Shown piece after piece: positions 19,330-42,867 of a stretch of DNA of 64,000 nucleotides. This DNA comes from an uncultured Chloroflexia bacterium. Lineage in GTDB: Bacteria > Chloroflexota > Limnocylindria > QHBO01. The first letter of the stretch is position 1, and each line of letters opens with the position of its first letter. The notes under the pieces are model-generated. The model worked only from the letters and a program-made list of their open reading frames with translations. It ran no database searches and was not told the origin of the DNA. Position numbers and translations under genes: made by a program. Where the stretch lies: assembly GCA_963783725.1 (NCBI GenBank), contig CAWAOJ010000002.1:1789279-1853278 (forward strand), in the 5' to 3' direction.

Positions 19330-20796
19330 ATGTCCGAGCTCGAGCACCCGCGAGCCGTCCCGCGCTGGCTGCCGTCTCCGCTGGTGCTCATGCTCGTCGT
19401 GGCCGCGGTGATCCTCGCGCTGGTCGGGTTGGCGCACGGACTGACCGATGCGGACTACTTCTGGCACCTCACGGCCGGGCGTCTCATTGTCAATTCGGGC
19501 GCGGTCCCGACCGTCGATCCGTTCTCGTTCACCTACGCCGGACAGCCGTGGACGCCGCACGAGTGGCTGGGCGAAGTGCTGATCTACCTCAGCGTGACGG
19601 TGCTGGGGACGACGCTCACGCCCGTGGTCTTCGGTCTTGTCGCCGCGGCCGGCATCTCCGTCGCCGCGTTCACGGCGCAGCGGCTCGGCTCGCGAACCAT
19701 CGCAACCGGTGTCGCGGTCGCCGTCGGGACGCTCGTCGTCATCCCGTACGTCACCGTGCGCCCGCAGACGCTGTCGTGGCTCCTGCTGGCTGCGACTCTC
19801 GCTCTTCCTGCTGTCACTCGATGCCGCGCGACCACGGCGCGCCCTGCTGCTCATCCCGCTGTTCGTCGTGTGGGCAAATCTGCACGGTCTGTACGTCGTC
19901 GGGCTGGGCGTCGTCGTGCTGTACGCGCTGTGGACCCTTGCAGGGCGAACGCCAATGGCCCGCGCGCGCGGCTGGACGATCGCGGCCGCCGGGAGGCGCG
20001 GCGCTCGCGGCGATGGTCACGCCAGCCGGGCCCATGGGCCTGCTCTATCCGCTCCGGTACCTGGAGCCCGGCGACTGGGGCCTGGCCAACATCGTGGAGT
20101 GGCAATCACCCAACTTTCACGATCCCGCGAACATCGGGCTGCTCGATCCTCATCGTCGCACTCGTGGCGTTCGGTACGCGCGGCGTTCCGGGGTGGATGG
20201 CGGTGCTGTGCTGGCTGGGTGTCGTCATGAGCCTGCTCTCCGTCCGCAACGAGCCGATCGCCGCCATCTGGTCACTGCCCGTCATCGCGGCAAACGTCGA
20301 CCGACGCTTCCCCGCCAGCAGACGAAGCGGCGCTGAAATAGCCGCTCGGCGTGTCATGGAAACGGCCGCGGCGCTGGTCGTCGCCGTCGCAGCGATCGTC
20401 ATCATCGGCCCCCGCATCGGAACGCCGGCGCAGGCGCAGGCAGCCGCGAAGCTGCCGGTCATGGGTGTCGATCGACTGCTGCGAAACGGCGGAGCGGAGC
20501 GAGTCTTCGCGGAATACGGCTGGGGCGGGTACGTCATCTCGCGGCTGTACGACAGCGGTGGGCGCGTCTTCGTGGACGGTCGAAACGACATGTATCCGCA
20601 GGCGATCCTGGAGGACTACTCGCGTATCAGGAGCGCGCAGAGCGGTTGGGAGGCGCTGCTGGACCGCTATGGCGCCAGTGCGATCCTTCTGCCGCCCGAT
20701 GCACCCCTGGTCAGCGCGGCGGCTCGCTCAGGCTGGTGCGAGGACCTGCGGGACCAGCGCGAAGTGCTTCTCCTGAGGTGCTCGCCGGCGCAGTAA
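19330..20796 (+). CDS. Uncharacterised polytopic membrane protein, paralog of 41371..42867; at least 2 apparent frameshifts
   Basis: ATG at 19330 (MSELEHPRAVPRWLPSPLVLMLVVAAVILALVGL). Conserved blocks shared with 41371..42867: FTYAGQPWTPHEW, VVWANLHGLY, EYGWGGYVISRLYDSGGRVFVDGRNDMYPQ. The middle of the gene reads only when switching among three frames (ORFs 19637..20230 and 19548..20336). Confidence 0.5.
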   Translation: MSELEHPRAVPRWLPSPLVLMLVVAAVILALVGLAHGLTDADYFWHLTAGRLIVNSGAVPTVDPFSFTYAGQPWTPHEWLGEVLIYLSVTVLGTTLTPVVFGLVAAAGISVAAFTAQRLGSRTIATGVAVAVGTLVVIPYVTVRPQTLSWLLLAATLALPAVTRCRATTARPAAHPAVRRVGKSARSVRRRAGRRRAVRAVDPCRANANGPRARLDDRGRREARRSRRWSRQPGPWACSIRSGTWSPATGAWPTSWSGNHPTFTIPRTSGCSILIVALVAFGTRGVPGWMAVLCWLGVVMSLLSVRNEPIAAIWSLPVIAANVDRRFPASRRSGAEIAARRVMETAAALVVAVAAIVIIGPRIGTPAQAQAAAKLPVMGVDRLLRNGGAERVFAEYGWGGYVISRLYDSGGRVFVDGRNDMYPQAILEDYSRIRSAQSGWEALLDRYGASAILLPPDAPLVSAAARSGWCEDLRDQREVLLLRCSPAQ

Positions 20797-21613
20797 CTGC
20801 ACCTGCTCCGTCGGGGATGCCTCGCCACAGCGCGATGATGCCCACGAGCACGCTCGGTGCCGAGAACCACGGCACCGGAAGCGCCAGGAAACACGCGACG
20901 ATCACGGTCCAGCGCCAACCACGGAGCGCGCCGCCGACCACGATCGCGGCCGCGAGCATGAGTCGCACCCACAGCGGCCAGGTGATGGCAACCGCTGAGG
21001 CGGGAATGGGCACGCTGGAGTTGCGGCGCAGGCTGTCGGCCCACTCGAACCACAGATGCGGGGCCACGGCGAACGAGATGCCGGCGACGACAGCGGTCAT
21101 CGCGATTGCGAGCACCAGCGCCCGCCATTCGCGACGGACCGCAAACCACAGCACGCCGACGCCCGGCGTGACCTTGGTGAGCAGGTTGAACGCCCACGCC
21201 TGCGGGTAGCGGAAGCCGACGACGGCCGCCGCCGCGATCAGCAGGTGCAGGTTTCCGGTGCTGATCTCGTCGGACACCGGCGAACCGGGAAAGAGCAGAA
21301 GGATGACCCCGATGCGCGGGCCCGCCAGCCAGGCCAGCAGCGCCAGGTTCAGCGCCGACCACAAGCCGCGAAACGCCTCCCAGGGGAGGATTCCGAACGG
21401 CGCGAAGAGTTGGGCGAACGCCGGCGAGTACAGGTAGGCGTCGCGGCCGCCCACCGTGCCGCGCTCGTAGAGATGGGCGAAGTCGAAGCGCCAGTAGACG
21501 CGCGCGTCCTGCATGAAATCGCGTTGGTTGAAGTTGAGCCACAGCCAGGCGAACACGAATCCGGCCCAGGCGAGCATCAAGATCCCGGTGCGGAGCAGGC
21601 GCCGCCGCGTCAA
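20711..21613 (-). CDS. DUF2029/GT87-like polytopic glycosyltransferase (subfamily A)
   Basis: 300 aa with about 8 TM helices. Motifs AYLYSPAFAQ, GNLHLLIAAA and WFAVRREWRAL are shared with 47778..48710 and 51080..52099. The C-terminal 40 residues overlap the convergent gene and may be read-through. Confidence 0.6.
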   Translation of the reverse strand: MTRRRLLRTGILMLAWAGFVFAWLWLNFNQRDFMQDARVYWRFDFAHLYERGTVGGRDAYLYSPAFAQLFAPFGILPWEAFRGLWSALNLALLAWLAGPRIGVILLLFPGSPVSDEISTGNLHLLIAAAAVVGFRYPQAWAFNLLTKVTPGVGVLWFAVRREWRALVLAIAMTAVVAGISFAVAPHLWFEWADSLRRNSSVPIPASAVAITWPLWVRLMLAAAIVVGGALRGWRWTVIVACFLALPVPWFSAPSVLVGIIALWRGIPDGAGAVTAPASTSGEALRAGPAGPRTSLSEPPR

Positions 21614-21649
21614 GGGTCACGGCGCGCTCCAGTTCGGGCAGCGAGGCGG

Positions 21650-23876
21650 AGCGCCGATCAGCGACCACGGCCAGGGCTGCGGCCCTGGCAGATCGGTGCC
21701 TGGCGGCGGGTAGCTGCTCAGCGAATCCTCGCGGTACACGTGATCGCGCACCACGCTGAGCTGCTGCGGCCGGCTCGGACGGAGCTCTCCGAGGTAGCCA
21801 GTCAGCGCCGTGTAGCGCGCCTGATCGCAGCCGATCCGCGCGACGGCCTGCAGCGCGTGCAGCGTTGTCAGATCGTAGGGTGTCGCGCGCCTCCGCGGCC
21901 TCAGCCGCGGCCGCGTGCGTCGTCGGCGCGGCCGCGGTCTGCCAGCAGCACCGCGCGCCAGGGCGCGCCCATGTCGGACGAGAGCCGGTTGTCGGCGAGC
22001 GCCAGATCCGACCGTACCGCCGCTGGAAGCAGCGCCGCGCGCGGTCCGATCCGGGTGACGATCGCTTCAACCCGCGACCTCCACCGCCTGTCGCGGGTCC
22101 CCGCGCGGGACCGCGCGTGCGATCAGCTGGCGATCGATGGCAACCGCGATCGCGTACGCATGCGTGGCATCTGCCGTACGCCCCGCTGCAGTCCAGAGCG
22201 CCTGCCCCAGGAGAAGCGAATAACTCGGGTCGAGCACCGTCCGGCGGGCGGCCTCGGTCAGGAGACGGATGCGTTCCGCGCGGACGTTCGTCGGCATTGC
22301 CGGAGCGCGCCCCACGGCCGCGGATCGCCTGGGCTCAGCACGCGCGCCTTCTCGTAGGCGACTGCAGCGCCACCGACGTCGCCGGACTCGACTCGCGCCA
22401 ACCCGAGGCCGAGCCAGTAGCCGGCGTCAGCCGGGTAGGCGTCCGTGGCGGCGCCGAAGCCGGATGCAGCTGCCGTCCAGTCTCCACGCACCGCGGCCTG
22501 CCGCGCCTGATCGGCCGCGAAGCGTGCGCTGTCAATACCGACGACCGACGTGATCACCAGGAGGCCCGCGAGCGCCGAGCGCGGCCGGCATGAGGAGCGC
22601 CGCGAGCTCCCATCAGCCGTCTCGGAACGACGAACCGTTCCTGGAGCCCGGTCATCGGCGCCCGAGTCGGCCACGGCCCAGGCCGCCACCGTCACGACGA
22701 GCACCATCACGGCCGGCAGGGAGCTGAAGTCGTCGAAGCACGACGCCGCCGCGATGCCGACCAGCACGGCCGCCGCTGTGCGGCGGCGTGGATCGGCGAG
22801 ATGCGGTCGGACGGAGGCGGCGAGGACGACCCCGAGTGCGGCGGCTGCCGAGGCGAGGATGAGCCCGCCGTCCGCGATCGTCAGCAACGGGACGCTGTGC
22901 GCGAGCCGCACCTGTAATGGAAAGGTGTAGTCAGGGACCGTCGTCAGTCGAACCCACGAGTAGGTCGAGGGACCACTTCCGGTAATGGGGTGCGCTCGGA
23001 AGATCGCCAACGCCTCACGCCAGATCTCGCCTCGGCCGTCCAGCGCCGAATCGACGACCTGGCCGACGTGGAATGCGACGAAGACAGCAGCTCCGACAGC
23101 GCCGAGGCCGAGCAGCCCCGAGGGCGGGCACAAGCGCGCGTCTTCGCTGCAGCCAGGCGACGACGTTCGCGGGCCGAGGCCCAACCCGAGAAGGCGTCGT
23201 AGGCGACTGCCGCGGCGATCAGGCCGAGCCACCCGGCCCGACCGGCGGAGAGCGGGATCGCGATGGCGGACGCCCCAGCCCAGATCGCGACAAGGATCCG
23301 CCGCCCCGGCCCCGCCGGCTGCCAGCGCAGGAAGGGTATGGCGAGGAGCGAGAGGATCGGGAAGACGTTCGCGGTGCCCCAGATGAAGACCTGGTTCGAT
23401 TCGAGGTTTGGCACCGAGCCGAAGACCGATATCCACGCGATCTTCTCCTGGATCCACCAGACGGCGATCATCACCAACCAGAACACGAGCGCGTAGCTGG
23501 CGGCGACGGCGACGGCGGTGCGCAGTCGCTGGGCGGCGCCGAGGTCGCGCATCGCGAAGAAGGTGAGCGCGTATGCCAGCGCCAGCCCGACCGATTCGAG
23601 CGAACCCTGAACGTCGGCGCTGAACATCGAGACGAGGACCAAGGCGGCCAACCCAGCCAGGATCGCCCAGTCGAGCGCGTTTCGTGGCCCGCGCAGCCTG
23701 AGCGCGGCCCATATGACGAGCGGCGCGACGAACAGGAGCTGCGCCGCGATGCGCAGGGCGGGATAGGTCCCCAGCAGCTCGGAGCCGAAGAATCCGACGA
23801 AGAGCACGGTCCAGAGCTGGAGCGCCAGGACGAGGGCGATCATTCCTCGGCGACGGACGCCGGCAGCGGGGCACAG
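21650..23876 (-). CDS. Wzy_C (O-antigen ligase / PglL-type O-oligosaccharyltransferase-like) membrane protein with C-terminal TPR region; at least 2 apparent frameshifts
   Basis: TM N-terminus from MIALVLALQLWTVLFVGFFGS. Wzy_C core ...SAGRAGWLGLIAAAVAY then (frame switch near 23150) GRGEIWREALAIFRAHPITGSGPSTYSWV...AHSVPLLTIADGGLILAS. TPR-like tail (GDWTAAASGFGAATDAYPADAGYWLGLGLA...), which needs a further frame switch near 22300. The 3' limit is approximate. Confidence 0.55.
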
Positions 23877-23959
23877 GCGAGCTTCACACGCAGGCGGAGA
23901 TCCTCGCCAGCCACCGCCAGCGCCTCGAGCTCGACGCGCTCGCTGCCGTGACGACTCGG

Positions 23960-25700
23960 CCGCCGAGCCACCGCGGGCGACCAGGAGCGCCTCGTGATCG
24001 GTCGGGACCGGCTCCTCGCCGGGGCCGAACAATGTCTCCTCCAGCTTCTCGCCGGGCCGCAGCCCGGTGAAGGTGATCTGGATGTCCTTCGTGCCTCCCG
24101 GCACCGACAGGCGGATGAGGTCGCGCGCGAGGTCGACGATCCGCATCGGTTGGCCCATGTTCAGCACGTGGATGTCGCCCGGGCGGCCGACGGCGCCGGC
24201 AAGCAGGATCAGCCGCACCGCCTCGGGAATCGTCATGAAGTAGCGGGTCATGTCCGGATGCGTCACCGTGACGGGGCCGCCGTCTGCGATCTGCTGCCGG
24301 AAGAGCTCGAGGACCGACCCCTGCGAGCCCATCACGTTGCCGAAGCGGACGAGGACGAACCGCCCGGTGGCGCCGGCGCCGATCTCCTGCACCAGCAGCT
24401 CGCCCATGCGCTTGGTGGCGCCCATGACCGATGACGGGTCCACGGCCTTGTCGGTGCTGATGAAGATGAACGTCTCGGCGTCGTGCCTGGCCGATGCCTC
24501 GGCCACGAGCCGCGTGCCCCGCACGTTGGCGAGCACGGCGGCGCTCGACGTTCGCCTCGGACAGCGGGACGTGCTTCTGGGCCGCGGCGTGGAGGACGAC
24601 CGAGGGCCGTTCGGCTGCGAAGACGCGTTCGAGTGCCGGCTCGTCGGTCACGTCAGCCGAGCACGGCGACGATCTCGACGTCCGGGAAGCGGCGCCGCAG
24701 CTCCTCGTCGATGAAGAAGAGCGGCGTCTCGGCCCGCTCGTAGCAGCACGATGCGGCGCGCGCCCAGCGACGCGACCTGCCGGCACACCTCTGACCCGAT
24801 GCTGCCTCCCGCGCCGGTGACCAGCACGGTCCTGCCAGCGACCAGGCGGCGCATCGGCTCATCCGGAATGGCATGCGGCTCGCGGCGCAACAGGTCCTCG
24901 ACGCGGACCGGGCGGATCTTGTTGACGGTGACGCTCTGGTCGAGCAGCTCCTGGACGCCGGGGAGCGTGCGGACGGCCACGCCGGCGGCTTCGCACAGCG
25001 CGATGACTCTGCGCAGCCGGTCGCCGCCGACATGCGCGGCAGGGCGACGATCACCTCGCTCGACCTCGCGCTCCGCGACGATGCGTGGCAGGTCGTCGCC
25101 GGTCCCGGCCACCTCGATGCCATAGATGCGCTGGCCGCGCTTGCGCGGCGTCGTCGTCCAGGAAGGCAACCGGCTCCAGCCGCAGCGCGCCGGTTGCGCC
25201 GCATCTCGCGAACGAGCATGCGCGCCGGCCTCGCCCGCGCCGTAGATGAGCACCGGACGGGGCGGTCCGGCGAGCATCGGCCACCGCGCCATCGCAGACC
25301 TTCCTGGCGCACGCGCGAGGCGAACCGGATGCCGCCCAGCACCAGGACCGAGAGGATGAACTCGATGATGAGCGCGCTGCGCGGGAAACCCGACGGTGCC
25401 GGGGAAGAGCGGACGGCTGCACGACCACGAAGATGGCAAGGGCCATGACAACGGACCCCGCCGCCAGCGACGAGACCACGAGCGCCACGTCCGACACGGT
25501 CGGGTAGCGCCACACGCGCAGGTAGGCGCCGGCGAGCAGGAAGCCCGCCGGACGGACGATGGCCGCCAGCGGCACGAAGATCCAGTACGTCGCGACGGCC
25601 GCGAACAGGTTGTTGCGGTCGATGCGCAGCCCGACCGCCAGCGCCGCTGCGAGCGCCGGCCAGCGCGGCGTCGAGGAGCATCGGCGCCCCAGCGCGCGCG
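23960..25700 (-). CDS. PglF/WbpM/CapD-like membrane-anchored NDP-sugar 4,6-dehydratase; at least 3 apparent frameshifts
   Basis: N-terminal TM region (ORF 25051..25842). Rossmann VLIYGAGEAG and VLVTGAGGSIGSEVCRQ (ORF 24648..25790). DVTDEPALERVFAAERPSVVLHAAAQKHVPLSE (ORF 23884..24786). C-terminal CapD domain ANVRGTRLVAEASARHDAETFIFISTDKAVDP...GNVMGSQGSV (ORF 22944..24536). Confidence 0.65.
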
Positions 25701-25719
25701 ACGCCAGGCGTTCGCCCAG

Positions 25720-26365
25720 CGTGTATCGGCGCCGAGGGCGGTTCGACCGGCGCTCGGCCGCGCGCGAGGATGCCCGCGAACGTCTTCCACAGGAGGCCGA
25801 TGTCGCGGCGCAGCGAGTAATGGCGCACGTAGTCGAGGTCAAGCGCCAGCTTGGCGTGCATCAGCTCGCGCTGCGTAGACCTCGTCGGGGTCGCCGACCA
25901 GCCGCTCCTCCTCGTCGATATACGCGAGCTGGCTCGGTCCGGTGATGCCCGGGCGCACGCGAAGCACCTCGCGCTCCTCGTCGGTCCACTGCTCGACGTA
26001 CTTGCGGCGCCTCCGGTCGCGGCCCGACCAGCGACATCTGCCCGGCGATCGACGTTCAGGAGCTGCGGCAGCTCGTCGAGCTTCGTGCGGCGCAGCACGG
26101 CCCCGACCCGCGTCACGCGGTAGTCGTACGAGCCGGTGACGGCCGGCCCGACGCGGTCGGCGCCGCGCGCCATGGAGCGGAACTTCCACATCGTGAACTC
26201 GCGGCCGTTGCGGCCCACCCGCCGCGCCCCGTAGACGATCGGTCCGGAGGAGTCGAGCGTCACGGCGAGCGCCACCAGCGCCATGACGGGCAGGACGAGC
26301 ACGAGCGCAACGACGCCCAGAACGACGTCGATGAGGCGCTTCACAGCTGCCTGCCAGGCTTGCAT
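25720..26365 (-). CDS. PglC/WbaP-like polyprenyl-phosphate sugar phosphotransferase (bacterial sugar transferase domain); at least 2 apparent frameshifts
   Basis: KRLIDVVLGVVALVLVLPVMALVALAVTLDSSGPIVYGARRVGRNGREFTMWKFRSM...RTKLDELPQLLNV (ORF 24653..26446, from ATG 26365). RPGITGPSQLAYIDEE...DPDEVY (ORF 25839..26189). Back to LDLDYVRHYSLRRDIGLLWKTFAGIL. Confidence 0.6.
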
Positions 26366-26369
26366 GGGT

Positions 26370-27536
26370 CTAGACGTTGACCGGGTGCCGCGCGGCGTCG
26401 AGGATCTCGAGCAGCGTCGAGGCCACGCGGTCCACCTGCGCGTCACTCATCCCCGGCCAGATGGGCAGCGAGATCGACCGCTCGTAGAGCCGCTCGGCGT
26501 TCGGAAAGTCCCCGACTCGGTAGCCGTAGCGTTCCTGGTACAGCGGGTGAAGATGCAACGGGATGAAATGGACCGATGCGCCGATGCCCACCTCGCCCAG
26601 CGCGTCGATCACCGCTGCCCTATCGAGTCGCAGCGCCTCGAGCTCGAGCCGCACCACGTAGAGATGCCATGCGTGGCGGTCGCCGTCGCGGCGTGGCGGC
26701 AGCTGGACGAGTTCGGAACCAGCGAAGGCGGCGTCGTAGCGAGCCGCGATCGCGGCACGCGCATCGGCCAGCTCGTCGAGGCGCGAGAGCTGGACGAGCC
26801 CGATGGCCGCCGCCAAGTCGGTGAGGTTGTACTTGAAGCCGGGCTCGACGACCTCGTAGAACCACTTCCCGCCGGCGCCGTACCGGTTCCAGGCATCGGC
26901 GCTGATGCCGTGCAGCCGCATGATCGACGCCCGCTGCGGCGATGGCGTCGGAGTCGGTGACCAGCATTCCGCCCTCGCCGCCCGTCGTCATGGACTTGGT
27001 GGCGTAGAAGCTGAACGCGGCCGCGTCGCCCAGACGACCGGTGGGGACGCCGTTCACGGTCGCAGGCAGCGCGTGGGCCGCGTCCTCGACGAACCGCGCG
27101 CTCGGCGCGATTTCTCGCAGCGCGGCGACGTCCACGCCGAGGCCGGCGAAGTGCACGGGCATCACGGCGCGAACCGCATCGGTCAGGACCGCTTCCAGCT
27201 GCGCAGGACCCAGGAGGTAGTCGTCCCCGACGTCCGCCAGCCGCGGTCGCGCGCCCAGATAGGCGCAGACCTCTCCGCATGCGGTGAAGGTGTAGGTGGG
27301 GACGACGACCTCGTCGCCGGGACCGATGCCGACGGCCTCCAGCGCGAGGTGAAGCCCGGCGGTGGCGCTGTTGAGCGCGAGGGCATGCCGGATACCGATG
27401 CGCTCCGCGAACTTCGCCTCCAGCTCGTGCGCCTTCGCGCCGGTCGTCAGCCAGCCGGAGCGCAGCACGTCGACGGCGGCCGCGATCTCGCGGTCGCCGA
27501 TGGAGGGTCGATGGAACGGAATGGCGTCGGAGTTGG
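26370..27536 (-). CDS. DegT/DnrJ/EryC1/StrS (PglE-like) PLP-dependent sugar aminotransferase; apparent frameshift near 26920
   Basis: N-terminal two-thirds in ORF 26620..27747 (IPFHRPSIGDREIAAAVDVLRSGWLTTG...FSFYATKSMTTGEGG), with a possible TTG start at 27536. C-terminal third in ORF 26370..26921 (ADAWNRYGAGGKWFYEVVEPGFKYNLTD...). Confidence 0.75.
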
Positions 27537-27662
27537 TCTTCAATCTCGCTCGGCTCGGCGGCTCTCCGGCGTCGGGCTGGACGTGCGGCCGCAAGTCAAC
27601 AGTAGCCGAAACGAGCAATGCAGTGCGGAGCAGCAAGTTTGCACAGTCACGGGGCGCATTGG

Positions 27663-28406
27663 CTACACGGAACGACGTCGGAAGGCACGGGCGGACCGAA
27701 CGTCGGCCAAATACACCAAGTGGAACGGCCAGTGGCGTCCGCTCCACGACACCGCGAAGCCTGCCTCTCGGAGTAGCTGCTCCCCGAGGGACAAGTCGAA
27801 GACGTGGTGGTGCAAGAAGCGCGTTTCGACGTTCTTTTCGACTTGGGCCCTTAGTTCGTCTGCCGTCAGCGCCGATTCGGCCCGAGCATGGTCATAGAGT
27901 TGGATCGCTTCATCCACGTGTGTTTGATCGTCCTCCGTCATGCCCAGGTCGTGGCGGAGGTGATCCATCGTAGTAACTGGGCGGCGGCGGTCGAAGATCA
28001 GCCGACCATCTGGGATGACCATCACGAGTCTTCCAGAAGGACGCAGCACCCGTCGCCACTCGGTCAACGAGCCGAGCGGGTCCGCCAGGTGCTCGATGAC
28101 GTGCGAGGTCAGAACCGCGTCGTAACACCCATCTTCCATTGAGGATAACTGCGCCGCCTCGCCAATTAGCAATCGTCGGATGGGCACTTTGCGATCACTG
28201 CGATCCGTGTGGCGAATCTCCGTCCAAAGCGTGTCCTCGGCGTAATCCAGCAGATCGACCGATCGAAGCGCGTCATAGAGCGGCAACATCCCGCGTTCAG
28301 CGAAGACCTCACTTGGCCCGCCTATTTCCAGCGCAACCAAGTCACGGAACTGCTCGCGGGCGCCACCTGCTACCGGAAGTCGTGAGGGCCTGATGCGCTC
28401 AAGCAT
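27663..28406 (-). CDS. Class I SAM-dependent methyltransferase
   Basis: LEIGGP...HVIEHLADP...LRPSGRLVMVIPDG Rossmann-fold methyltransferase motifs. The raw ORF extends to 28520, but the likely start is MLERIRP. Confidence 0.65.
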   Translation of the reverse strand: MLERIRPSRLPVAGGAREQFRDLVALEIGGPSEVFAERGMLPLYDALRSVDLLDYAEDTLWTEIRHTDRSDRKVPIRRLLIGEAAQLSSMEDGCYDAVLTSHVIEHLADPLGSLTEWRRVLRPSGRLVMVIPDGRLIFDRRRPVTTMDHLRHDLGMTEDDQTHVDEAIQLYDHARAESALTADELRAQVEKNVETRFLHHHVFDLSLGEQLLREAGFAVSWSGRHWPFHLVYLADVRSARAFRRRSV

Positions 28407-28432
28407 GGCTCGCGCCGCCCACGCAGGGCCAC

Positions 28433-30007
28433 GTGAACGGAGCTTCAAGGCCCACCTTGCGACGGGCGCCCTGCGAGCGTGTCGCTGGCTCGAACAGTAC
28501 GGCGGTTCATGACGTGCCACAGCTAAGTTACCGTTCGCCCGTGTTGCAGTCCCCTGACGCTCACGCTCATCCCGAGGACGGAATTGGATCGCTGAAAGCG
28601 ACCGTCATCGTTGGCACCGGATCGATTGTGACGGTAGGACTCAGCGTCGTAACCGCCAAAGCGTACGCGGTGATCTTGGGCCCGGCGGGAGTGGGCTTGT
28701 ACGGCCTCATGCTGTCAGTGCTCAACCTTGGCGTGATAGTGGTCAGCGTTGGCATGGGGGTCAGTGTGGTCCAGGCGACAGCAGCGGCAGTTGCCGCGAA
28801 GGACTGGAGCCTCGTGCATGCCGTCCGGCGTACGGCACGCATTCTCGCTGTGATTGGTGGGGCGGTTGGCGGCGTGCTGCTGATCGGGCTCCGTGAGCCA
28901 ATAGCTAAGTTGGTGTTAGGCGACGCCACAAAGGATGGCGACGTCGTCATTCTGGCCGGGGCACTGCTTCTGACCGTTGCAGCCGGCGCCCAATTGGCTC
29001 TGCTGACAGGCCTGCACCGTGTCAAGGCGGTGACGCTAGTAAACGTGGCTTCGGCTCTTGTCTCGGCCGGCGCAGGAGTCGCTCTGGTCGCCCTTGTCGG
29101 CATTGCAGCGCTTGCTCCAGCACTGCTCCTGACGGCCGCCGTCCAAGCGGCCCTCTCCGTAGCTGTCAATCGCCGGTCAAGAGAAGCCGGCATCCCAAGC
29201 CCACGCGGCACAACGGCCATCCCCGGCGTCGTCGGCACGCTCGTCCGGAGGGGGGCTCGGATAGCTGCCAGCCAACTTGTCAGCACGGGCGTGCAACTGG
29301 GTGTCCCCGTCATGGTATTGCAGATGCTCGGCACGCAGGAAGTTGGTTACTATCGGGCAGCGGCGACCATTTCAGTCGGTTATCTGACCTTTTTTCTGGC
29401 CAGTTTGACGCAAGACTATCTCCCGAGGATTGCGGGGGCATCGGACAGCGGCGCCATGATTCTGCTCATCGATCGCCGGATGCGTCTTGTCATGAGTCTC
29501 GGCTTGCCGATCATCCTCGGACTCCTTGCGCTTGGTCCGTTGGCCATCCAGCTCCTGTACTCGTCCGCGTTCGCCCCAGCGCTCGATGTCCTTCAGTGGC
29601 AACTGGTCGGCGATATAGTCCGGCTGCCAGCGTGGGTTCTTGCATTCGTTCTGCTCACCGGCGACGGCGGGCCGTACTTTCGCGCGGAACTCACCGGCGG
29701 CATCGCGCTCGCGCTGGGCAGTATTCTGGGGCTAGCAACTCTGGGCCTGACTGGCGCAGGCGTAGGGTATGCGGCAGCCCAGGTCGCCTATTACGCGGTG
29801 CTGTGGATGCTGGTACGGCGCCGTCTTCCGCTGCGGCCGGGTCGTCTGCAGATGGGGCTTCTGCTGACGTCGGCCTTGTGCGCAGCCGTGTTGTTGCTCG
29901 ACGTTGCGACTGTTCCGCGGCTCGTCATCTTTGGCACAGCCACGCTTGCGCTGGCCGCCTACGCCTGGCCGCGCGCGTACCTCCTCCAGAGACGAGGTGA
30001 ACTGTGA
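28433..30007 (+). CDS. Wzx-type polysaccharide/oligosaccharide flippase (polysaccharide biosynthesis protein, MOP superfamily)
   Basis: 524-aa ORF with about 12-14 TM helices and the N-terminal SLKATVIVGTGSIVTVGLSVVTAKAYAVILGPAGVGLYGL typical of Wzx. The true start is probably an internal GTG around 28510-28545, because the first residues overlap the divergent methyltransferase. Confidence 0.75.
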   Translation: MNGASRPTLRRAPCERVAGSNSTAVHDVPQLSYRSPVLQSPDAHAHPEDGIGSLKATVIVGTGSIVTVGLSVVTAKAYAVILGPAGVGLYGLMLSVLNLGVIVVSVGMGVSVVQATAAAVAAKDWSLVHAVRRTARILAVIGGAVGGVLLIGLREPIAKLVLGDATKDGDVVILAGALLLTVAAGAQLALLTGLHRVKAVTLVNVASALVSAGAGVALVALVGIAALAPALLLTAAVQAALSVAVNRRSREAGIPSPRGTTAIPGVVGTLVRRGARIAASQLVSTGVQLGVPVMVLQMLGTQEVGYYRAAATISVGYLTFFLASLTQDYLPRIAGASDSGAMILLIDRRMRLVMSLGLPIILGLLALGPLAIQLLYSSAFAPALDVLQWQLVGDIVRLPAWVLAFVLLTGDGGPYFRAELTGGIALALGSILGLATLGLTGAGVGYAAAQVAYYAVLWMLVRRRLPLRPGRLQMGLLLTSALCAAVLLLDVATVPRLVIFGTATLALAAYAWPRAYLLQRRGEL

Positions 30008-34563: not shown

Positions 34564-36084
34564 TCATCGGTCCGCGCTTGGTGCTGCCAAGACCGCGCAG
34601 GTCTGCGAGTAGAACGGACAGCGCAGCACAAACGCGTACCCATCGCGCACCAGCTGATCTACCGGCCGCGCAGCTTCTTCTTGCTCGCGGACCATCACGC
34701 CATCCCGGTGCGCGTAATACAGCACAGCCGGCGACCAGTCTCGACCGAAGATCGCAACCCGTTGATCTGCGGGAACAAGATCTCTAACGAATCGCGCCAC
34801 GGGCAGCACTTGCATCGGATCAGGCGCATTGGGCGCATACGCGCGGCCCCAGTAGTCGATTGTGGCCAGCAGCGAAAACGCCCACACAAGTCCTAGGGTG
34901 GCTGCGACGGCGCGGCCGATCACTCGATGTCGAACCCGCCACAAGAAATCGAAGCCGAGGCCAATGAGAATGGCGACTAACGGAGCCACCGCGATCAGAG
35001 CGTATTCGTGGATGGTGAGGTAATCGGCGAGCCCCAGCCAGAACACGATGAGTGACGCGCAAAGGATGGCAACCAGTGTCCTAAGCCGTGCCGCGACCGA
35101 CGCAAAAAGCGCGACGAAAATCCATACTTCAAGCCCGCCTCCCGCTAGATACAGGTGGATGCGCCGAAGCGTTTCACCGAGTGCGTGTGGGTCAGGTGTG
35201 GCGGAGAGCACCCCGAACTGCTTCGCCAGCGCTGAACTCGTAAGGAAGGCGGTGGCTGGAGTAGCCGCCTTGAGCGCATCGGCGTACCGAATCCACGCCG
35301 CACCTGCGACCAACGCAAGGGAGGCTGCGCCAAACGACACCAAGCTCTTTGCGTCGAGCCGTGGAAACGGGAAGATCAAGGGGATCATGAGGTACAGGGC
35401 GCCCGTCGTTGGCTTGCTCATCATTGCCAGTACACCCAGGAACACGCACCCGATCAACCACGGCCAGCCCGAGCCTTGTCGCCAACGGATGCCGAACACG
35501 CAGTATCCAAGTGCGGCGGCGGTCGGCAGAAACTCGATCACCGCGGCTCTGCCCCACAAGAGTGAGAACGGAGAGAAGAGAAAAGCACCAGTCGCAGCCA
35601 GAGCGGCCACTTCGGACGTCCTGAGATGCCTCATCAAGACGAAGATGCCGATCCCTGTCGCGAGGAACATGGCCAGCCCCGTCAGGCGAAGGGCGGGATC
35701 AGGAGGGAGGCCGAGGGCTATGAGTATGGTGGCGACGGCTTGAAACGCTGGGAATTCGTGAGGAACGACAGATAACCCACCAAACACCGGAACCACTGGG
35801 TGGAGAAGGTCAATACCATCTCGGAGGAAGAGAACCGTGGTGAAAGCGGTCTGCGTTTGGCGGAACGGGTGAATCTCGACCAGCGGCTGAAATACCGTAG
35901 GGATCCGAATAAGCAGGGCGCTCCAGAACAAGCCTACGAGAGCGAGGTTTCGGGCGCGCGTGGAGGCGACCGGGGGTGCGTCGGTACATCGGTGACCGAG
36001 AGAGAGGACCGTTCGGAACCGAGGAACGAAGACGCGGACCACGGGTGAATTATCCGCGCTAGTCTTCCGCGGATGGATCGCCAC
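34564..36084 (-). CDS. Polytopic membrane glycosyltransferase (PMT_2/ArnT-like), uncharacterised
   Basis: 506 aa with about 10-12 TM helices and large hydrophobic loops. No soluble enzymatic domain. Divergent from the SpdS-like membrane gene. Confidence 0.55.
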   Translation of the reverse strand: MAIHPRKTSADNSPVVRVFVPRFRTVLSLGHRCTDAPPVASTRARNLALVGLFWSALLIRIPTVFQPLVEIHPFRQTQTAFTTVLFLRDGIDLLHPVVPVFGGLSVVPHEFPAFQAVATILIALGLPPDPALRLTGLAMFLATGIGIFVLMRHLRTSEVAALAATGAFLFSPFSLLWGRAAVIEFLPTAAALGYCVFGIRWRQGSGWPWLIGCVFLGVLAMMSKPTTGALYLMIPLIFPFPRLDAKSLVSFGAASLALVAGAAWIRYADALKAATPATAFLTSSALAKQFGVLSATPDPHALGETLRRIHLYLAGGGLEVWIFVALFASVAARLRTLVAILCASLIVFWLGLADYLTIHEYALIAVAPLVAILIGLGFDFLWRVRHRVIGRAVAATLGLVWAFSLLATIDYWGRAYAPNAPDPMQVLPVARFVRDLVPADQRVAIFGRDWSPAVLYYAHRDGVMVREQEEAARPVDQLVRDGYAFVLRCPFYSQTCAVLAAPSADR

Positions 36085-36101
36085 TACGCAGATGTCTCAG
36101 C

Positions 36102-38363: not shown

Positions 38364-39272
38364 GTGTCACAGAACTACGACGAATCAGTCCCGACCGAGG
38401 CAATGGTGCGCAGCGACTTCGGTCCGGGATTCGTCCTCCTTATCCCGAAGGCAATCGCCGCGGCGTTCATCGTCACCTTCTTTCTCCTGTACTTTCTCAC
38501 TGGCCAACCGTTCTCAAATCCGTACCCCGGAGGCGACTTCCTCGCCTACTGGCACGCAGCCGAACGCCTGCGTGATGGAGTGGCGCTCTATCCCCCTGGC
38601 ACGGATGCCGGGCTGGGTTTCGTGTATCGCTATTCCCCCTGGTTCGCTTATGTGTTCGTCCCTCTCACGACGCTCCCCTTGAGTACGGTGCTGCTCCTGT
38701 GGCAGCTGGCCATGCTCGGTGCCGGATTCGCCCTGCTGCGTCCCCTGATGCAACCGCTCTCGCTTGCCAGCGTATTGCTGATCCTGCTATGCGCCCCGCT
38801 GCTGATCGATCTCGCCTGGGTGGGAAACGTCGAACCGCTGATGATTCTCCTGATCGCCTCACTCCTGCGACGCCCGGTTGCCGGCCCCGTCGCCGTGGCG
38901 CTTGCCGCGTCACTCAAGATCACCCCGATTGTATTCGTCGCGTACTACATCGCTCGCAGGGAGTGGATCCCGGCAGTCATGGCCATCGCGCTCGCCGTGG
39001 GACTGTGGCTTCCTGCCATCGCGCTCGGGCTCGCCGACTACCCGACGACTCCCCTTCCAACGATCGCGATCTGGGGCGTGAACCCGGAGCTAGGCGCTCT
39101 CGTCGCCGTTGTGACGGTCCTCACAACGACCTGGTTGGCGCTCATTCGGTCACGCTGGACCCTCGTGCTGGCCACCACGGCAAGCATGGCCACAAGCCCG
39201 GTCCTATTCATCACCAGCCTGCCCCGGGTGCTCATCGCCGTTTGGACTGACCCCCGCAGCGACTCGGAATGA
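38364..39272 (+). CDS. DUF2029/GT87-like polytopic glycosyltransferase (subfamily B)
   Basis: Motifs FVYRYSPWFAYVFVPLT, GNVEPLMILL and LAASLKITPIVFVAYYIARREW are shared with 40520, 42864 and 50142. Begins 1 nt after the SpdS-like stop. Confidence 0.65.
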   Translation: MSQNYDESVPTEAMVRSDFGPGFVLLIPKAIAAAFIVTFFLLYFLTGQPFSNPYPGGDFLAYWHAAERLRDGVALYPPGTDAGLGFVYRYSPWFAYVFVPLTTLPLSTVLLLWQLAMLGAGFALLRPLMQPLSLASVLLILLCAPLLIDLAWVGNVEPLMILLIASLLRRPVAGPVAVALAASLKITPIVFVAYYIARREWIPAVMAIALAVGLWLPAIALGLADYPTTPLPTIAIWGVNPELGALVAVVTVLTTTWLALIRSRWTLVLATTASMATSPVLFITSLPRVLIAVWTDPRSDSE

Positions 39273-40462
39273 GCGATCGTCGGGGCGCGCTGCTCGCCGG
39301 CCTCTACGCGTTCGTCGTCTTCTGGCTTACGGCCGCTCATCAGCTCGTCTTTCGCTGGGACTTCTACTTCCTGGCCGATGCCTTTCTTCATGGTCGCACC
39401 TGGGTCGAGTACCCGTTGCCCGGTGCCATCGACACGGTGACGCTCAATGGGCACGTCTATGTCCCGTTTGCACCGTTACCCGCCGTGTTCTTAATGCCGC
39501 TCGTCGCCGTGTTCGGCGTCCTGGCGCTCCTGCCGTGGGAGCCGACCATCAACGCGGCGCTCGCAGCCACCTGCGTCGGGCTGGCCTGGTCGCTCATCGG
39601 TCGCATTGCCGGTGGCAGCATGCGGACCCAGATCTGGCTGACGGCCTTCTTCGCGTTCAGCACCGCCCTGTGGTCGATTACCGTTCGCGGCGGCGTGTGG
39701 CATACGGGGCAGCTGATCGCCACCATGGTGACGCTCATCGGCCTGCTCGAGGCCACTGGCGCACGACGGCCCTGGGTGCTCGGCATGGTCGCCGGCGCCG
39801 GCTTCCTCGCCCGAGCGCCCCTGCTCTTTGCCGTGCCGTTCTACGCGTGGATCGCCGCTGGTGGTGGCCACGCCGACCTGCGGCCGCTTGCTGCGCCTGG
39901 GGCTCTTCGTCGCTCGACGGTCGTCGTGGGGGTCGCCGTTGTGGCGGTTGGTCTGGCCGCCGTGTACAACGCCGTGCGGTTCGGGTCGCCGCTCGAGTCG
40001 GGATATGCGCTCGCCAACCTGCCGCCGCAGTTGGCCGGGACGCGTGATCAGGGGCTCTTCTCGCTGGCCTACCTTCCGCGCAACCTGAATCTTCTGCTGT
40101 GGCACCCGCCGACGGCAGGCCCGCCGCCGCTCTTTCTGCTGCCGGATGGCTACGGACTGTCCATCTTCATCACCAGTCCGGCCATCGTCATGGTCGGCTG
40201 GGCCGATTACGGGCGCCGATTCGTCCTTGCCTGCGCCCTGACTGCGATGGTGGTATTGGTGCCCAGCCTGCTCTACTACGGTGGGGGCTGGCAGCAGGTC
40301 GGCTTTCGCTACTTCTTGGACTCGATGCCGTTCGTCCTCGTCGTCATGGCCGCCGGCTGGAAGCGCGAGGCCGCAACGGCCTGGAAGGCACTTATCGCGT
40401 TCGGCATCGTCGCCGGAATATGGGGCGTGATCTTCACCTACCTAAGCATTCTCCAGAGGTGA
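39269..40462 (+). CDS. Polytopic membrane protein, putative glycosyltransferase (PMT_2/ArnT-like)
   Basis: 397 aa and about 10 TM helices. Starts in an ATGA overlap with the preceding GT87 gene. No soluble domain. Confidence 0.5.
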   Translation: MSDRRGALLAGLYAFVVFWLTAAHQLVFRWDFYFLADAFLHGRTWVEYPLPGAIDTVTLNGHVYVPFAPLPAVFLMPLVAVFGVLALLPWEPTINAALAATCVGLAWSLIGRIAGGSMRTQIWLTAFFAFSTALWSITVRGGVWHTGQLIATMVTLIGLLEATGARRPWVLGMVAGAGFLARAPLLFAVPFYAWIAAGGGHADLRPLAAPGALRRSTVVVGVAVVAVGLAAVYNAVRFGSPLESGYALANLPPQLAGTRDQGLFSLAYLPRNLNLLLWHPPTAGPPPLFLLPDGYGLSIFITSPAIVMVGWADYGRRFVLACALTAMVVLVPSLLYYGGGWQQVGFRYFLDSMPFVLVVMAAGWKREAATAWKALIAFGIVAGIWGVIFTYLSILQR

Positions 40463-40519: not shown

Positions 40520-41386
40520 CTAGCGTTTTGGCCCTTGTGACAGTTGGGACGTGGGCGGGTTTCGCGTTCCGACGAGGAGCCATGAAGGAAAGTAAGGGAC
40601 CCAGCGTGGGAGTGCGAAGAGCACCGCAATCGCGGCCGCGGTCCACGCCTCGGGCCGCCTGCGGAGCCACCACGTGGCGCCCAGCGCTGCGATCACAACA
40701 AGCCACGACCATGGGGTCGGAATGGGTGCGTCCACCAGCGAGCCGGCGTCGAAGGGGTAGTTGCGCAGATCGAACAGGAGGACCGGTGCGACGAGCGCGG
40801 CCGTCAGCATCAGCGTCCCCGCGACCCGCCACCACTGGCGGCGCACGACGTAAACCCAGACGTACAGCACGGGAACGGCCTTCAGCGAGGCCGCCGCCGC
40901 GATCCACAGCGGACCACTGCGCCGATCGACGCCCCGGACCAGTGCCGCAAGCATGAGCGGTTGGACGTTGCCGCTCGACGCGGTCCGGATCAGCACGGCA
41001 CCCAGCAGCACGCCGAGGAGGGTCCCGGCCAGGCTGCGAGTGCGGAGCGCCGGCCAGACGCAGGCGATGGCGGCCAGGACGAGTACCGCGCCCCAGCCGA
41101 AGCGCACGACATCGTGCGGTAGGAACGTCAGCGGGATCCACAACGCGGCGAACCAGGGGCTGTATCGGTAGATGTCCGGGTCTTCCAGGTTCGGGAGCGG
41201 CGGGTAGAGCGGCCCGCCCTCGCGCAGTCGCAGCGCGGCATTCCAGTAGGCGTCCGAGTCCTTCAGCCACCAGTTGGTGCCCGGTCCCGTCAGCGCGGCC
41301 AGTGCAAACCCCACGACCAGGCCGATGGCGATCGCTTGCGCGAAGCGGATCGCGAGCCGCCTCACGTTCATCAGGCGCGTACCCAC
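40520..41386 (-). CDS. DUF2029/GT87-like polytopic glycosyltransferase (subfamily B)
   Basis: DIYRYSPWFAALWIPLTFLP, GNVQPLMLAALV, LKAVPVLYVWVYVVRRQWWR. Confidence 0.65.
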   Translation of the reverse strand: MGTRLMNVRRLAIRFAQAIAIGLVVGFALAALTGPGTNWWLKDSDAYWNAALRLREGGPLYPPLPNLEDPDIYRYSPWFAALWIPLTFLPHDVVRFGWGAVLVLAAIACVWPALRTRSLAGTLLGVLLGAVLIRTASSGNVQPLMLAALVRGVDRRSGPLWIAAAASLKAVPVLYVWVYVVRRQWWRVAGTLMLTAALVAPVLLFDLRNYPFDAGSLVDAPIPTPWSWLVVIAALGATWWLRRRPEAWTAAAIAVLFALPRWVPYFPSWLLVGTRNPPTSQLSQGPKR

Positions 41387-42867
41387 ACCGCGGCGACGTC
41401 ATCGACGTAGACGGGCCTCCACTTCGCCGAAGCGTTCAGCCAGGCGCCGAGCGGCGAATCGGGCGGAAAGAGGACGAAGTCGATGGCGTACCGGTCGAAG
41501 GTCGTCTGTGGATCGATGCTCAGGCCGATGGTCCGAACGTATTCCGCGATCACTCGGTCGCCGTAGACGTCGGCCCTTCCGTCGATGAAGATCGGCTGAT
41601 CCGGCCGTTGCAGACCCAGGTAGCCGCCCCACTCATATCGGTTGAAGACGCGATCACCGGGGTCGTGCGCACGGATCCAGTCCACGGCTGCCACCGGCTG
41701 TTCTCGCGCGGTCTCCCGTGCCTGCGCGTCGGGTAACGAACGGGCGAGTGCCAGCGCCGTGCCGAGCGCGAGCACCGCGATCACCAGTACGACGAGCAGT
41801 GGGTCGGATCGCGGTCGGGTCATCCGTTCCAGCGTTGAAGCAGCCTGCTGCCCCAAGCGTGACTTCGAGACAGCCGGCCCGAGATTCACGGCAATGATCG
41901 CGGTGCCCACGGGACCGAGGATCAGCAGGAACCGGACGGCCATGAACGCCATCAGCGTGAGCCCGACGAGGATGAGCACGTCGGCCGTTCGCATCCGTCG
42001 CCACGCGAATGCGACCGTCGGCAGTACCGCGACCATGACAAACGCGACGAGCAGCTGCCCGAAGAGCGAGTCAAGGCGTGCGGGCTGCCATTCGCCAACG
42101 GCAGCCTTGAGCGTCGTCAGCTGCAGCGTGTCGAGCGGATAGCGGTAAATGTCGATGCCATTCGGATTCAGCGCGAGCACGGCGGCCGCGACGACAAGCG
42201 CGACGGCGATTGCGGCGATGTGGTGCCATGCAAGGGCCTGGCCGATCACGCCCGGGCGTGCGTGGTCGAGCATTTCCCCAACCACGACCGCGCCGCCGAG
42301 CAGGAAGAGGAGCGGCCAGCCGGCGTGCAGGTTGACCCAAGCCAGCGCCAGGACCGGCAGCCATACAAGGGTGGACGTCCGGCGTCGAGCGAGATAGTTC
42401 CACAGCACGTATAGAGTCAGTGCGCTGCCCAGCAGGTCGAAGACCTGAACTCGCACGCCGAGGGTCGGTCCGGCCAGCACCAGGCCGGCGGAGAGCCAGA
42501 CAACCCGACTGAGCCAGCCAATCGATGGCGATCGCACCGCCATGGCGCGCCACAGGACCGCGAATCCGGCAACGGCAAGGCCAGCGAAGGCAAGCGACAG
42601 GAGCGTCTCGCCCCATGCGCCAAGGCGCGCCACCAGGGCCAGAAGGACGTTCGCCCCCCAGTCCTGGCTGGTCCACGGACGGCCTGCGGCGGTGAGGCTC
42701 CAGGTATCCATCGCGGGAACCCAGCCGCTTGTAAGAACCGCATCACCGGCGCGGATGTGCCACCAGACGTCTGGATCGACCAGCGGCCAAGTCGCCCGCG
42801 GAGTGAGCGCAGCGCCAAAGAACGCGGCGATGACCGCGGCCGCCGACGACAGTCGAGGAAGCGTCAC
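41371..42867 (-). CDS. Uncharacterised polytopic membrane protein (intact paralog of 19330..20796), putative glycosyltransferase
   Basis: 498 aa. Blocks WSLTAAGRPWTSQDWG, LAWVNLHAGW and NRYEWGGYLGLQRPDQPIFIDGRADVYGD match the frameshifted plus-strand gene at 19330. Confidence 0.55.
   Translation of the reverse strand: MTLPRLSSAAAVIAAFFGAALTPRATWPLVDPDVWWHIRAGDAVLTSGWVPAMDTWSLTAAGRPWTSQDWGANVLLALVARLGAWGETLLSLAFAGLAVAGFAVLWRAMAVRSPSIGWLSRVVWLSAGLVLAGPTLGVRVQVFDLLGSALTLYVLWNYLARRRTSTLVWLPVLALAWVNLHAGWPLLFLLGGAVVVGEMLDHARPGVIGQALAWHHIAAIAVALVVAAAVLALNPNGIDIYRYPLDTLQLTTLKAAVGEWQPARLDSLFGQLLVAFVMVAVLPTVAFAWRRMRTADVLILVGLTLMAFMAVRFLLILGPVGTAIIAVNLGPAVSKSRLGQQAASTLERMTRPRSDPLLVVLVIAVLALGTALALARSLPDAQARETAREQPVAAVDWIRAHDPGDRVFNRYEWGGYLGLQRPDQPIFIDGRADVYGDRVIAEYVRTIGLSIDPQTTFDRYAIDFVLFPPDSPLGAWLNASAKWRPVYVDDVAAVWVRA

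Follow-up and report, generated by a model that had tools for sequence, protein, structure and literature searches.

A 64,000-nucleotide stretch of DNA from an uncultured Chloroflexia bacterium (contig CAWAOJ010000002.1; hereafter, the window) carries two related genes for polytopic membrane proteins, at 41371..42867 (hereafter, the focal gene) and 19330..20796. These paralogs were found to belong to a very large bacterial family that is unannotated in Pfam, NCBIfam, and the sequences of the PDB. Based on the predicted structure together with the pattern of motifs and topology, the family is probably one of outward-facing glycosyltransferases of the GT-C fold class that use a lipid-phosphate-linked sugar.

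The size of the family was assessed with a search profile built from 28 relatives, and the matches were counted as cluster representatives at 50% identity. The profile retrieved 23,661 representatives at E ≤ 1e-3, 13,342 at E ≤ 1e-10, and 1,854 at E ≤ 1e-30, most of which were full-length proteins of 470–560 aa. Conservation outside this genome, on which the proposal of a novel clade in a preliminary description of the window had been made to depend, is therefore extensive. Across a diverse sample of 49 members (24–65% identity), D33, H37, R139, W177, N179, H181, P235, R312, P391, and G414 were invariant, and D31, W36, D54, E259, W260, G415, Y416, D429, G430, R431, and D433 were nearly so. As that description had suspected, the family is without a known Pfam assignment: a Pfam scan of the focal protein and the 49 members gave no credible match, and an NCBIfam scan of the same proteins gave sub-threshold matches only. 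The NCBIfam model archaeo_STT3 aligned its positions 303–511 with residues 215–405 of the focal protein at an E value of 8e-5, far below the cut-off, and matched 4 of the 49 members, likewise below threshold. No match was obtained when the family profiles were searched against all PDB sequences. In every source name found, members were labeled "hypothetical protein", including the RefSeq entries from the cultured strains Azospira sp. I09 (WP_152091138.1) and Granulicella tundricola MP5ACTX9 (WP_198152231.1).

The focal gene was confirmed to be an open, intact reading frame of 498 codons. Its product shows 11 predicted transmembrane helices followed by an external C-terminal alpha/beta domain of approximately 120 aa, and its nearest relatives occur in metagenome-assembled genomes of Chloroflexota/Ca. 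Limnocylindria. The public gene call for this protein is 446 aa long and begins at M53, so that the first transmembrane helix and the D31-x-D33 motif are lost. The longer open reading frame (ORF) is right, because residues 20–52 of the focal protein are kept in its homologs; the GTG start at 42867, which overlaps the stop of the upstream gene by 4 nt, agrees with the homolog alignment.

In a tblastn comparison of the focal protein with 19330..20796, residues 10–104 (40% identity over 95 aa, E 3e-11) and residues 381–473 (36% over 95 aa, E 1e-10) were matched in one and the same frame. The middle of the gene, including WANLHG, was found in the next frame, then in the third, and then back in the first, which indicates three +1 frameshifts, located near 19797–19800, 19960–19995, and 20141–20143. 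Joining the frames yielded a 487-aa protein with 35% identity to the focal protein over 189 aa (E 2e-16). The rebuilt protein could be aligned free of gaps, at about 50% identity, with intact orthologs from more than 25 related genomes, and it keeps every family-invariant residue. Thus, the earlier reading of 19330..20796 as a frameshifted homolog was borne out, and the two genes are true paralogs with 35–40% identity. The motif blocks that the two proteins had been reported to share are likewise real, and all three match invariant columns of the wider family: WSLTAAGRPWTSQDW in the focal protein corresponds to FSFTYAGQPWTPHEW in 19330..20796, WVNLHAG to WANLHG, and YEWGGY..x12..FIDGRADVY to YGWGGY..x13..FVDGRNDMY.

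An AlphaFold2 model of the focal protein, made with a 28-sequence alignment, was of high confidence (predicted local distance difference test, pLDDT, 90.2; predicted template modeling score, pTM, 0.90). In a Foldseek comparison with 350,542 PDB chains, the predicted structure superposed on solved GT-C enzymes, and the top 22 matches were all of this class. At E ≤ 1e-3, 18 matches were obtained (STT3, ArnT, AglB, PglB, and AftA), each with a probability of 1.00 and with template modeling (TM) scores of 0.44–0.59. The eleven best full-length matches were all STT3 (E 8e-8 to 2e-5, TM-score 0.46–0.59), the best showing an E value of 8e-8 and a TM-score of 0.57–0.59. They were accompanied by ArnT (5ezm; E 2e-5, TM-score 0.49), AglB (7e-5), PglB (1.5e-4), and AftA (4e-4), and at lower rank by ALG9, EmbB, and Pmt. 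Matches outside the GT-C class showed TM-scores of at most 0.15, and transporters a probability of at most 0.11. The comparison of a predicted structure with membrane glycosyltransferases, which had been suggested as a check, thus returned confident matches to GT-C enzymes only, and no confident match to a transporter or an unrelated family appeared. These results support a GT-C fold for what had been called a candidate membrane-glycosyltransferase clade.

The predicted topology was consistent with this assignment. With the N-terminus predicted inside and 11 transmembrane helices, the inner loops are short and arginine-rich, and each of the 29 conserved residues is located in an outer loop or at its membrane edge. 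The long first external loop (EL1, 58 residues) opens with the conserved D-x-D-x-W-W-H-x-R and carries D31, D33, W36, H37, D54, W65, and W70. The other conserved residues of the outer face are R139, N179, H181, P235, E259, W260, R312, and the C-terminal motifs, x-Y-x-W-G-G-Y and D-G-R-x-D, which are carried by the external alpha/beta domain. The acidic EL1 residues characteristic of GT-C enzymes are represented by D31 and D33, which lie 6–8 residues past the first transmembrane helix (residues 8–25) and, in the model, at the start of a helix formed by residues 32–47. As modeled, this placement is the pattern expected of an outward-facing GT-C active site, in which the individual residues would have the putative roles described below.

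The relationship to STT3, the closest structural match, was assessed at the level of sequence by hhalign, using yeast STT3 and Campylobacter lari PglB query sequences checked against PDB 6c26_A and 3rce_A. The best local alignments, although non-significant, followed the same order along both proteins. D31-P-D33-x-W-W-H-x-R aligned on E45-F-D47-P-W-F-N-Y-R, I-x-E259-W aligned beside the TIXE motif, x-Y-x-W-G-G-Y aligned on W-W-D-Y-G-Y, and F-I-D-G-R aligned on L-I-D-G-G-K, with a Y-to-D spacing of 13 residues in the family, yeast STT3, and C. lari PglB alike. The E values against yeast STT3, C. lari PglB, and a PglB family profile were 0.05–0.4, with probabilities of about 1%. In a control, PMT_2 compared with GT87 or with STT3 was equally non-significant; since known GT-C families were not joined by this method either, the STT3/PglB result weighs little in either direction. 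In view of the failed control and the shallow profiles (the PglB family alignment had an effective sequence number, Neff, of 2.2), the motif order was taken as a lead and not as evidence of GT66 membership. When the C-terminal 121 residues were modeled alone (pLDDT 80, with low confidence at the WGGY segment), the best match among the 350,542 PDB chains was the minimal C-terminal domain of AfAglB-S2 (3vu0; probability 0.93, TM-score 0.58, E 0.087), and all other matches had TM-scores below 0.4. Meanwhile, Pfam STT3 (PF02516) matched none of the 49 members at E ≤ 1, whereas true PglBs in the same database carry it. In known oligosaccharyltransferases (OSTs), the Asp of the WWDYG motif contacts the Thr/Ser of the sequon. 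The canonical WWDYG was not found in the family, in which this position reads x-Y-x-W-G-G-Y (R-Y-E-W-G-G-Y in the focal protein) without a conserved Asp. Judged by its predicted structure, the family is accordingly filed as GT-C, structurally closest to GT66, and by the tests run it is not a GT66 member.

To place these proteins in their gene context, 80 related loci (denoted L plus a number), 48 of which are Limnocylindria-type, were compared by mapping the window proteins onto them; the loci had been found via an alignment that biased the set towards Limnocylindria and Acidobacteriota. The 48 Limnocylindria-type loci hold 75 family members, with two or more in 24 loci. A GT87- or PMT_2-type gene was located within 300 bp of 46 of the 75 members and of 35 of the 53 with full flanks (61–66%), and 20 members had another family member within this distance. 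Orthologs of the PMT_2 gene 17659..19302 (50–78% identity) occurred within 300 bp of 27 of the 75, often 11 nt downstream. A neighbour-joining tree split the family into subfamilies, each with a characteristic partner. Downstream of subfamily A3, at a distance of 11 nt and on the same strand, lies an ortholog of 17659..19302; subfamily B, to which 19330..20796 belongs, is divergent from that PMT_2 gene, as in the window. Subfamily A1 is preceded by an ortholog of the GT87 gene 20711..21613, and subfamily A2, the focal type, lies among GT87 genes and GT87-like genes of the 43751..45094 type. A Pfam scan of 61 immediate neighbours detected 10 GT87, 8 PMT, and 3 PMT_2 genes.

Outside Limnocylindria, the neighbourhood differed. 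The 49 immediate neighbours scanned in Acidobacteriota included 16 DUF362, 6 GT2, 3 GT87, and 1 PMT genes, plus tandem family copies. In the Acidobacteriota loci L054–L082, the family often forms two to three tandem copies, and the DUF362 genes stand directly upstream. The Azospira and Granulicella homologs had no GT87 or PMT_2 neighbours and were surrounded by unrelated genes. The only cross-phylum association found was that of the GT2 gene 46089..46931, whose orthologs (49–53% identity) are found in six Acidobacteriota loci at a distance of 3–6 kb from a family member and which has an ortholog of 79% identity in L003. By analogy with three-component systems, this recurrence mildly favours a polyprenyl-monophosphate-sugar donor. 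The association with GT87 and PMT_2 is thus real within Limnocylindria but does not characterize the family as a whole, and it appears to reflect a clustering of GT-C pathway genes.

These data bear on several readings of the family. The glycosyltransferase assignment derives from predicted structure together with the motif and topology pattern, and several observations weigh against it. hhalign comparisons with STT3, PglB, PMT_2, and GT87 gave E values of at least 0.025 and no significant link, and the Pfam, NCBIfam, and PDB profile searches likewise provided none to a characterized GT-C family. Furthermore, the best structural matches use pyrophosphate-linked oligosaccharides, in conflict with the favoured monophosphate-sugar donor, and the PpgS/AglJ-like GT2 from which that donor is suggested scores far under the NCBIfam cut-offs and in most loci does not directly adjoin the family member. 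The STT3 matches would be accommodated by a compact, divergent OST of the STT3/AglB/PglB type, which would transfer a pre-assembled glycan en bloc to protein or another acceptor, with polyprenyl-pyrophosphate or a dolichol-phosphate-like lipid as the carrier, and in which the C-terminal domain would serve as a minimal "central core". We consider this reading rather unlikely; it overlaps with the glycosyltransferase reading, because both are GT-C. The ranking of eleven STT3 structures ahead of AglB and PglB speaks for such an enzyme but discriminates weakly, the GT-C-A core being common to all such enzymes. The AfAglB-S2 match of the isolated domain points in the same direction, although its E value is only 0.087 and the WGGY segment was modeled with low confidence. 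The weak archaeo_STT3 match, shared by 4 of the 49 members, stops just before WGGY, and the collinear motif alignments with their common spacing of 13 come from comparisons that are non-significant. In addition, the subfamily-B copy adjoins a full undecaprenyl-pyrophosphate (Und-PP)-glycan pathway (Bac_transf, Wzx, PglF-like dehydratase, and PglE-like aminotransferase); against this, the cross-phylum association is with a GT2 resembling monophosphate-sugar synthases and not with Und-PP pathways, PF02516 is absent from every one of the 49 members, and the WWDYG Asp is not conserved. In its boldest form, which appears unlikely, this reading would make the family an unrecognized compact (~500 aa) bacterial OST branch, widespread in the soil phyla Chloroflexota, Acidobacteriota, and some Proteobacteria, in which x-Y-x-W-G-G-Y specifies a non-sequon acceptor. 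OST-like en bloc transfer would then be far commoner in bacteria than the PglB systems of Campylobacterota and Desulfobacterota suggest.

The preliminary description had offered another interpretation, in which each family member and the adjacent GT87- or GT39-like protein constitute an obligate two-component glycosyltransferase, for example a heteromer like Pmt1–Pmt2. Such units appear quite improbable. The proportion of Limnocylindria members with a GT87/PMT_2-type neighbour (46 of 75; 35 of 53 with full flanks), the subfamily-specific partners (PMT_2 for A3 and B, GT87 for A1 and A2), and the overlapping stop and start codons in the window, which suggest co-translation, would all fit this model. 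However, about a third of the Limnocylindria members are without a partner, DUF362, GT2, and tandem copies dominate in Acidobacteriota, and the Azospira and Granulicella homologs stand alone, so that the claim of obligate pairing could not be upheld. The adjacency itself does hold for all three ORFs flagged in the window (a 27-bp gap or overlaps), but it is less specific than it appears: with at least 8 GT87-like and 2 PMT_2-like genes at 16–52 kb, GT87 genes are crowded enough in the island for chance adjacency to be expected, and the partner genes encode complete GT-C enzymes themselves. A glycan polymerase or ligase of the Wzy/WaaL kind, or a non-enzymatic polytopic protein or transporter, is very improbable. 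The NCBIfam model "oligosaccharide repeat unit polymerase" was weakly matched by 2 of the 49 members (best E 0.0027); in addition, one Wzy_C+TPR gene is found close to the subfamily-B copy, and 3 of the 61 neighbours are of this type. Nevertheless, no Wzy, WaaL, or transporter structure occurred among the confident Foldseek matches, transporters being matched only at the low scores given above, and none of the 49 members carries a Wzy_C Pfam match.

In the mechanism we propose for an outward-facing GT-C glycosyltransferase, the enzyme would take a sugar from a polyprenyl-phosphate-linked donor at the outer face of the membrane and pass it to an envelope glycan or glycoprotein as the presumed acceptor. 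The EL1 aspartates may act as catalytic base or metal ligands, the conserved R139 and R312 may hold the donor phosphate, and the small C-terminal domain may shape acceptor binding. The enzyme would act alongside the GT87 and PMT_2 enzymes of the island, the PpgS/AglJ-like GT2 as putative donor synthase, and the flippase-like protein, such that the island could represent an enlarged version of the "three-component" scheme of extracytoplasmic glycosylation.

The three-component paradigm has been described together with a definition of GT-C enzymes (PMC11127046), and systems of this type include GtrA/B/*, PpgS-Rv3632-Rv3779, and ORF15/14/12 of C. youngae, which is GT136 (PMC11127046). As judged from genes alone, the gene run in the window resembles them in having a polyprenyl-phosphate-sugar-synthase-like GT2, a flippase-like protein, and GT-C enzymes; it differs in that there are many GT-C genes per island instead of one and that the flippase candidate is of the LPG_synthase_TM type and not GtrA, SMR, or MATE. 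GT136 is a GT-C enzyme that founded a new family for want of sequence similarity to existing ones (PMC11127046), and the YfhO-like "component 27" is a large dark bacterial GT-C family recognized from AlphaFold models, with STT3/PglB as best matches at a TM-score of about 0.6, a median length of 665 aa, and the InterPro annotation YfhO (PMC10584680). Given these precedents, a new GT-C family is not surprising in itself. The present family is similar to component 27 in its darkness and best structural matches, yet its members are about 500 aa long, and no YfhO Pfam match was detected in the 49 members. It is taken here to be a new family inside a known fold class.

The closest structural counterparts of the full-length model and, at a weak level, of the C-terminal domain taken alone are STT3/AglB/PglB (GT66, PF02516). 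In these enzymes as in the family, EL1 opens with an acidic motif that precedes W/F-aromatic-x-x-R, a late external loop carries a Glu, a late transmembrane helix begins with an Arg, and the alpha/beta domain at the C-terminus has an aromatic-G-Y and then D-G/N 13 residues on. The family is unlike them in size (~500 versus 700–870 aa), number of predicted transmembrane helices (11 versus 13), the lack of PF02516 and of significant profile similarity, x-Y-x-W-G-G-Y in place of WWDYG, and a gene context that points to a monophosphate-sugar donor. The GT-C-A architecture is shared with ArnT (GT83; 5ezm, E 2e-5) and, with weaker matches, with PMT/PMT_2 (GT39), and ArnT is moreover of similar size; a polyprenyl-phosphate-sugar donor is a likely further feature in common with both. 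Genes of the ArnT/PMT type are the commonest neighbours of the family. Their motifs differ, however; PF02366 and PF13231 (PMT, PMT_2) matched neighbouring genes but neither the focal protein nor the 49 members, and hhalign against the local PMT_2 profile gave a probability of 1.1%. GT87 proteins (PimE-type polyprenyl-phosphate-mannose mannosyltransferases) are also polytopic and are co-clustered, often co-transcribed, with the family in Limnocylindria, but those found here are about 300 aa long and have no C-terminal domain. PF09594 (GT87) likewise matched neither the focal protein nor the 49 members, hhalign against the local GT87 profile gave 2%, and no GT87 (PimE-type) structure was named among the 50 Foldseek matches listed.

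GT-C enzymes build envelope glycans and glycoproteins outside the cytoplasm, and they include drug targets (Emb, ArnT) and the glycoengineering tool PglB; more than 13,000 unannotated clusters at 50% identity represent a sizeable gap in glycosyltransferase annotation. With OSTs as the closest structural relatives, the family may bear on the reach of OST-like chemistry in bacteria. Limnocylindria are an abundant, uncultured lineage of soil and freshwater, and their islands with ten or more GT-C genes point to a complex envelope glycan assembled extracytoplasmically. The cultured carriers Granulicella tundricola and Azospira sp. I09 make the function of the family directly testable and, together with its size and OST-like features, are reasons for experimental follow-up.

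The third ORF that the preliminary description had counted as a paralog, 39269..40462, belongs to a different conserved polytopic family, and only the paralogy of the other two stands. No homology to the new family was detected by hhalign, either with the family profile against the sequence (probability 0.2%) or between the profiles of the two families (2.5%), and a distant paralogy was accordingly rejected. The ORF has a well-conserved family of its own with 1669 matches, whose invariant residues include D55, W144-H145, E161, R182, and D351. It matched no PDB sequence and gave a weak NCBIfam match to the LA_3751/3752 putative glycosyltransferase (E 0.018) and a weakly suggestive hhalign probability of 8.5% with the PMT_2 profile. 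It is probably another unannotated GT-C-like family. One of its homologs carries the JGI name ArnT-like.

As summarized in Table 1, a single, very extensive envelope-glycan island occupies the region 16000–52500. Pfam GT87 was matched by seven of its ORFs (four above and three below the gathering score), and one further GT87-like ORF was recognized by hhalign only; there are also two PMT_2 ORFs, of which 17659..19302 scores above the gathering score and 34564..36084 just below. The island further includes both family members, other polytopic ORFs, and an Und-PP-glycan pathway to which three GT2s and three methyltransferases belong.

Table 1. Features of the envelope-glycan island in the window
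Feature	Coordinates	Strand	Basis or remark
Focal gene	41371..42867	(-)	Intact open 498-codon ORF; subfamily A2 of the unannotated family, GT-C by predicted structure
Second family member	19330..20796	(+)	Subfamily B; frame broken by three +1 shifts
PMT_2-type (GT39/GT83-like) GT-C gene	17659..19302	(-)	Pfam PMT_2 5.5e-8; divergent, 27 bp from 19330
GT87 gene	20711..21613	(-)	Pfam GT87 5.2e-15; convergent with 19330..20796, 86-nt overlap
Wzy_C (O-antigen ligase/O-oligosaccharyltransferase-type) + TPR fusion	22258-23874	(-)	
PglF-like Polysacc_synt_2 dehydratase	22944..24536		N-terminal part missing or frameshifted
Bac_transf phosphoglycosyltransferase	24653..26446		
DegT (PglE-like) aminotransferase	26370..26921 + 26620..27747		Split in two frames
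Wzx flippase	28433..30007		
Fused MFS/spermidine-synthase-like protein, 753 aa	36102-38363	(+)	NCBIfam "fused MFS/spermidine synthase"
GT87 gene	38364..39272	(+)	Pfam GT87 1.5e-5; mannosyltransferase PRK13375 1.7e-6; overlaps start of 39269..40462 by 4 nt
Different conserved polytopic family, 397 aa	39269..40462	(+)	No Pfam assignment
GT87 gene, directly downstream of focal gene	40520..41386	(-)	Pfam GT87 2.1e-7; 16-nt overlap
GT87 gene, directly upstream of focal gene	42864..43764	(-)	4-nt stop/start overlap with focal gene
Polytopic GT87-like gene, 447 codons	43751..45094	(-)	hhalign GT87 profile 70%, E 4e-5
LPG_synthase_TM/flippase-like gene	45091..45886	(-)	Pfam 2.7e-17; NCBIfam flippase-like domain
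GT2, polyprenyl-phosphate sugar synthase-like	46089..46931	(+)	Pfam Glycos_transf_2 5.9e-20
HTTM + DCC1-like thiol-disulfide oxidoreductase fusion	48661-49890	(-)	Among GT87 genes

The focal gene lies in a co-directional run of flippase-like, GT87-like, GT87, focal, and GT87 genes whose stop and start codons overlap throughout. The downstream GT87 gene 40520..41386 is probably in the same operon, and in L003 its ortholog (71% identity) directly follows the focal ortholog. Upstream, 42864..43764 matches Pfam GT87 on its 3' part (7e-4, below the gathering score) and is split by one frameshift near 43400, as seen from two overlapping ORFs and a frame switch in the phase of third-position G+C (GC3); its orthologs precede the focal orthologs in L024 and L032. 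The next gene, 43751..45094, is conserved next to subfamily A2, on the upstream side, with orthologs in L001 and L003; it has one in-frame stop (44444..44446) and no Pfam match, and on the hhalign comparison it is probably a divergent GT87. The LPG_synthase_TM gene 45091..45886, frameshifted near 45650–45700 with two frames seen by tblastn, is by its domain match a candidate flippase for a lipid-linked sugar, and in L001 its ortholog runs into the start of the focal ortholog. The GT2 gene 46089..46931 is dolichyl-phosphate hexose transferase-like, with NCBIfam matches to PpgS (1.8e-23) and AglJ (4.3e-20) that are both below the curated cut-offs, and its product would be a candidate maker of the lipid-linked donor. 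Near the subfamily-B copy, the coding signal of 20711..21613 runs on upstream of an in-frame stop, and the convergent arrangement of a GT87 gene of this type with a subfamily-B gene recurs in L038.

Several other observations were made in the island. The genes at 22944–30007, including a methyltransferase, form a bacillosamine-type Und-PP-glycan set resembling the front half of a pgl-like protein-glycosylation locus. In 3 related loci, a Wzy_C+TPR protein is encoded immediately beside a member of the new family. The MFS/spermidine-synthase fusion adjoins the 39269..40462 ortholog in L001 and, in L003, is found in the same glycan cluster, several genes away from that ortholog. Orthologs of the HTTM+DCC1 fusion (45–48% identity) occur in the same islands of L008, L029, L034, and L053. 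The G+C content of the window is 62–73% and falls to 0.62–0.65 at 28–38 kb, and the GC3 of the island (0.78–0.87) is lower than that of the flanking housekeeping genes (0.93–0.97).

In 19330..20796, each lesion is a clean single-base event, and the rest of the ORF is fully conserved; this pattern fits either consensus errors in the metagenome assembly or very recent inactivation. Homopolymer-type sequencing error was rejected for the three shifts, whose sites are not in homopolymer runs, and the other disruptions of the island likewise lie away from such runs. Single-base frame disruptions, together with one in-frame stop, were unusually dense in the otherwise well-conserved genes of the island, being located at 19.8, 19.97, 20.14, 26.6–26.9, 43.4, 44.44, and 45.65–45.70 kb.

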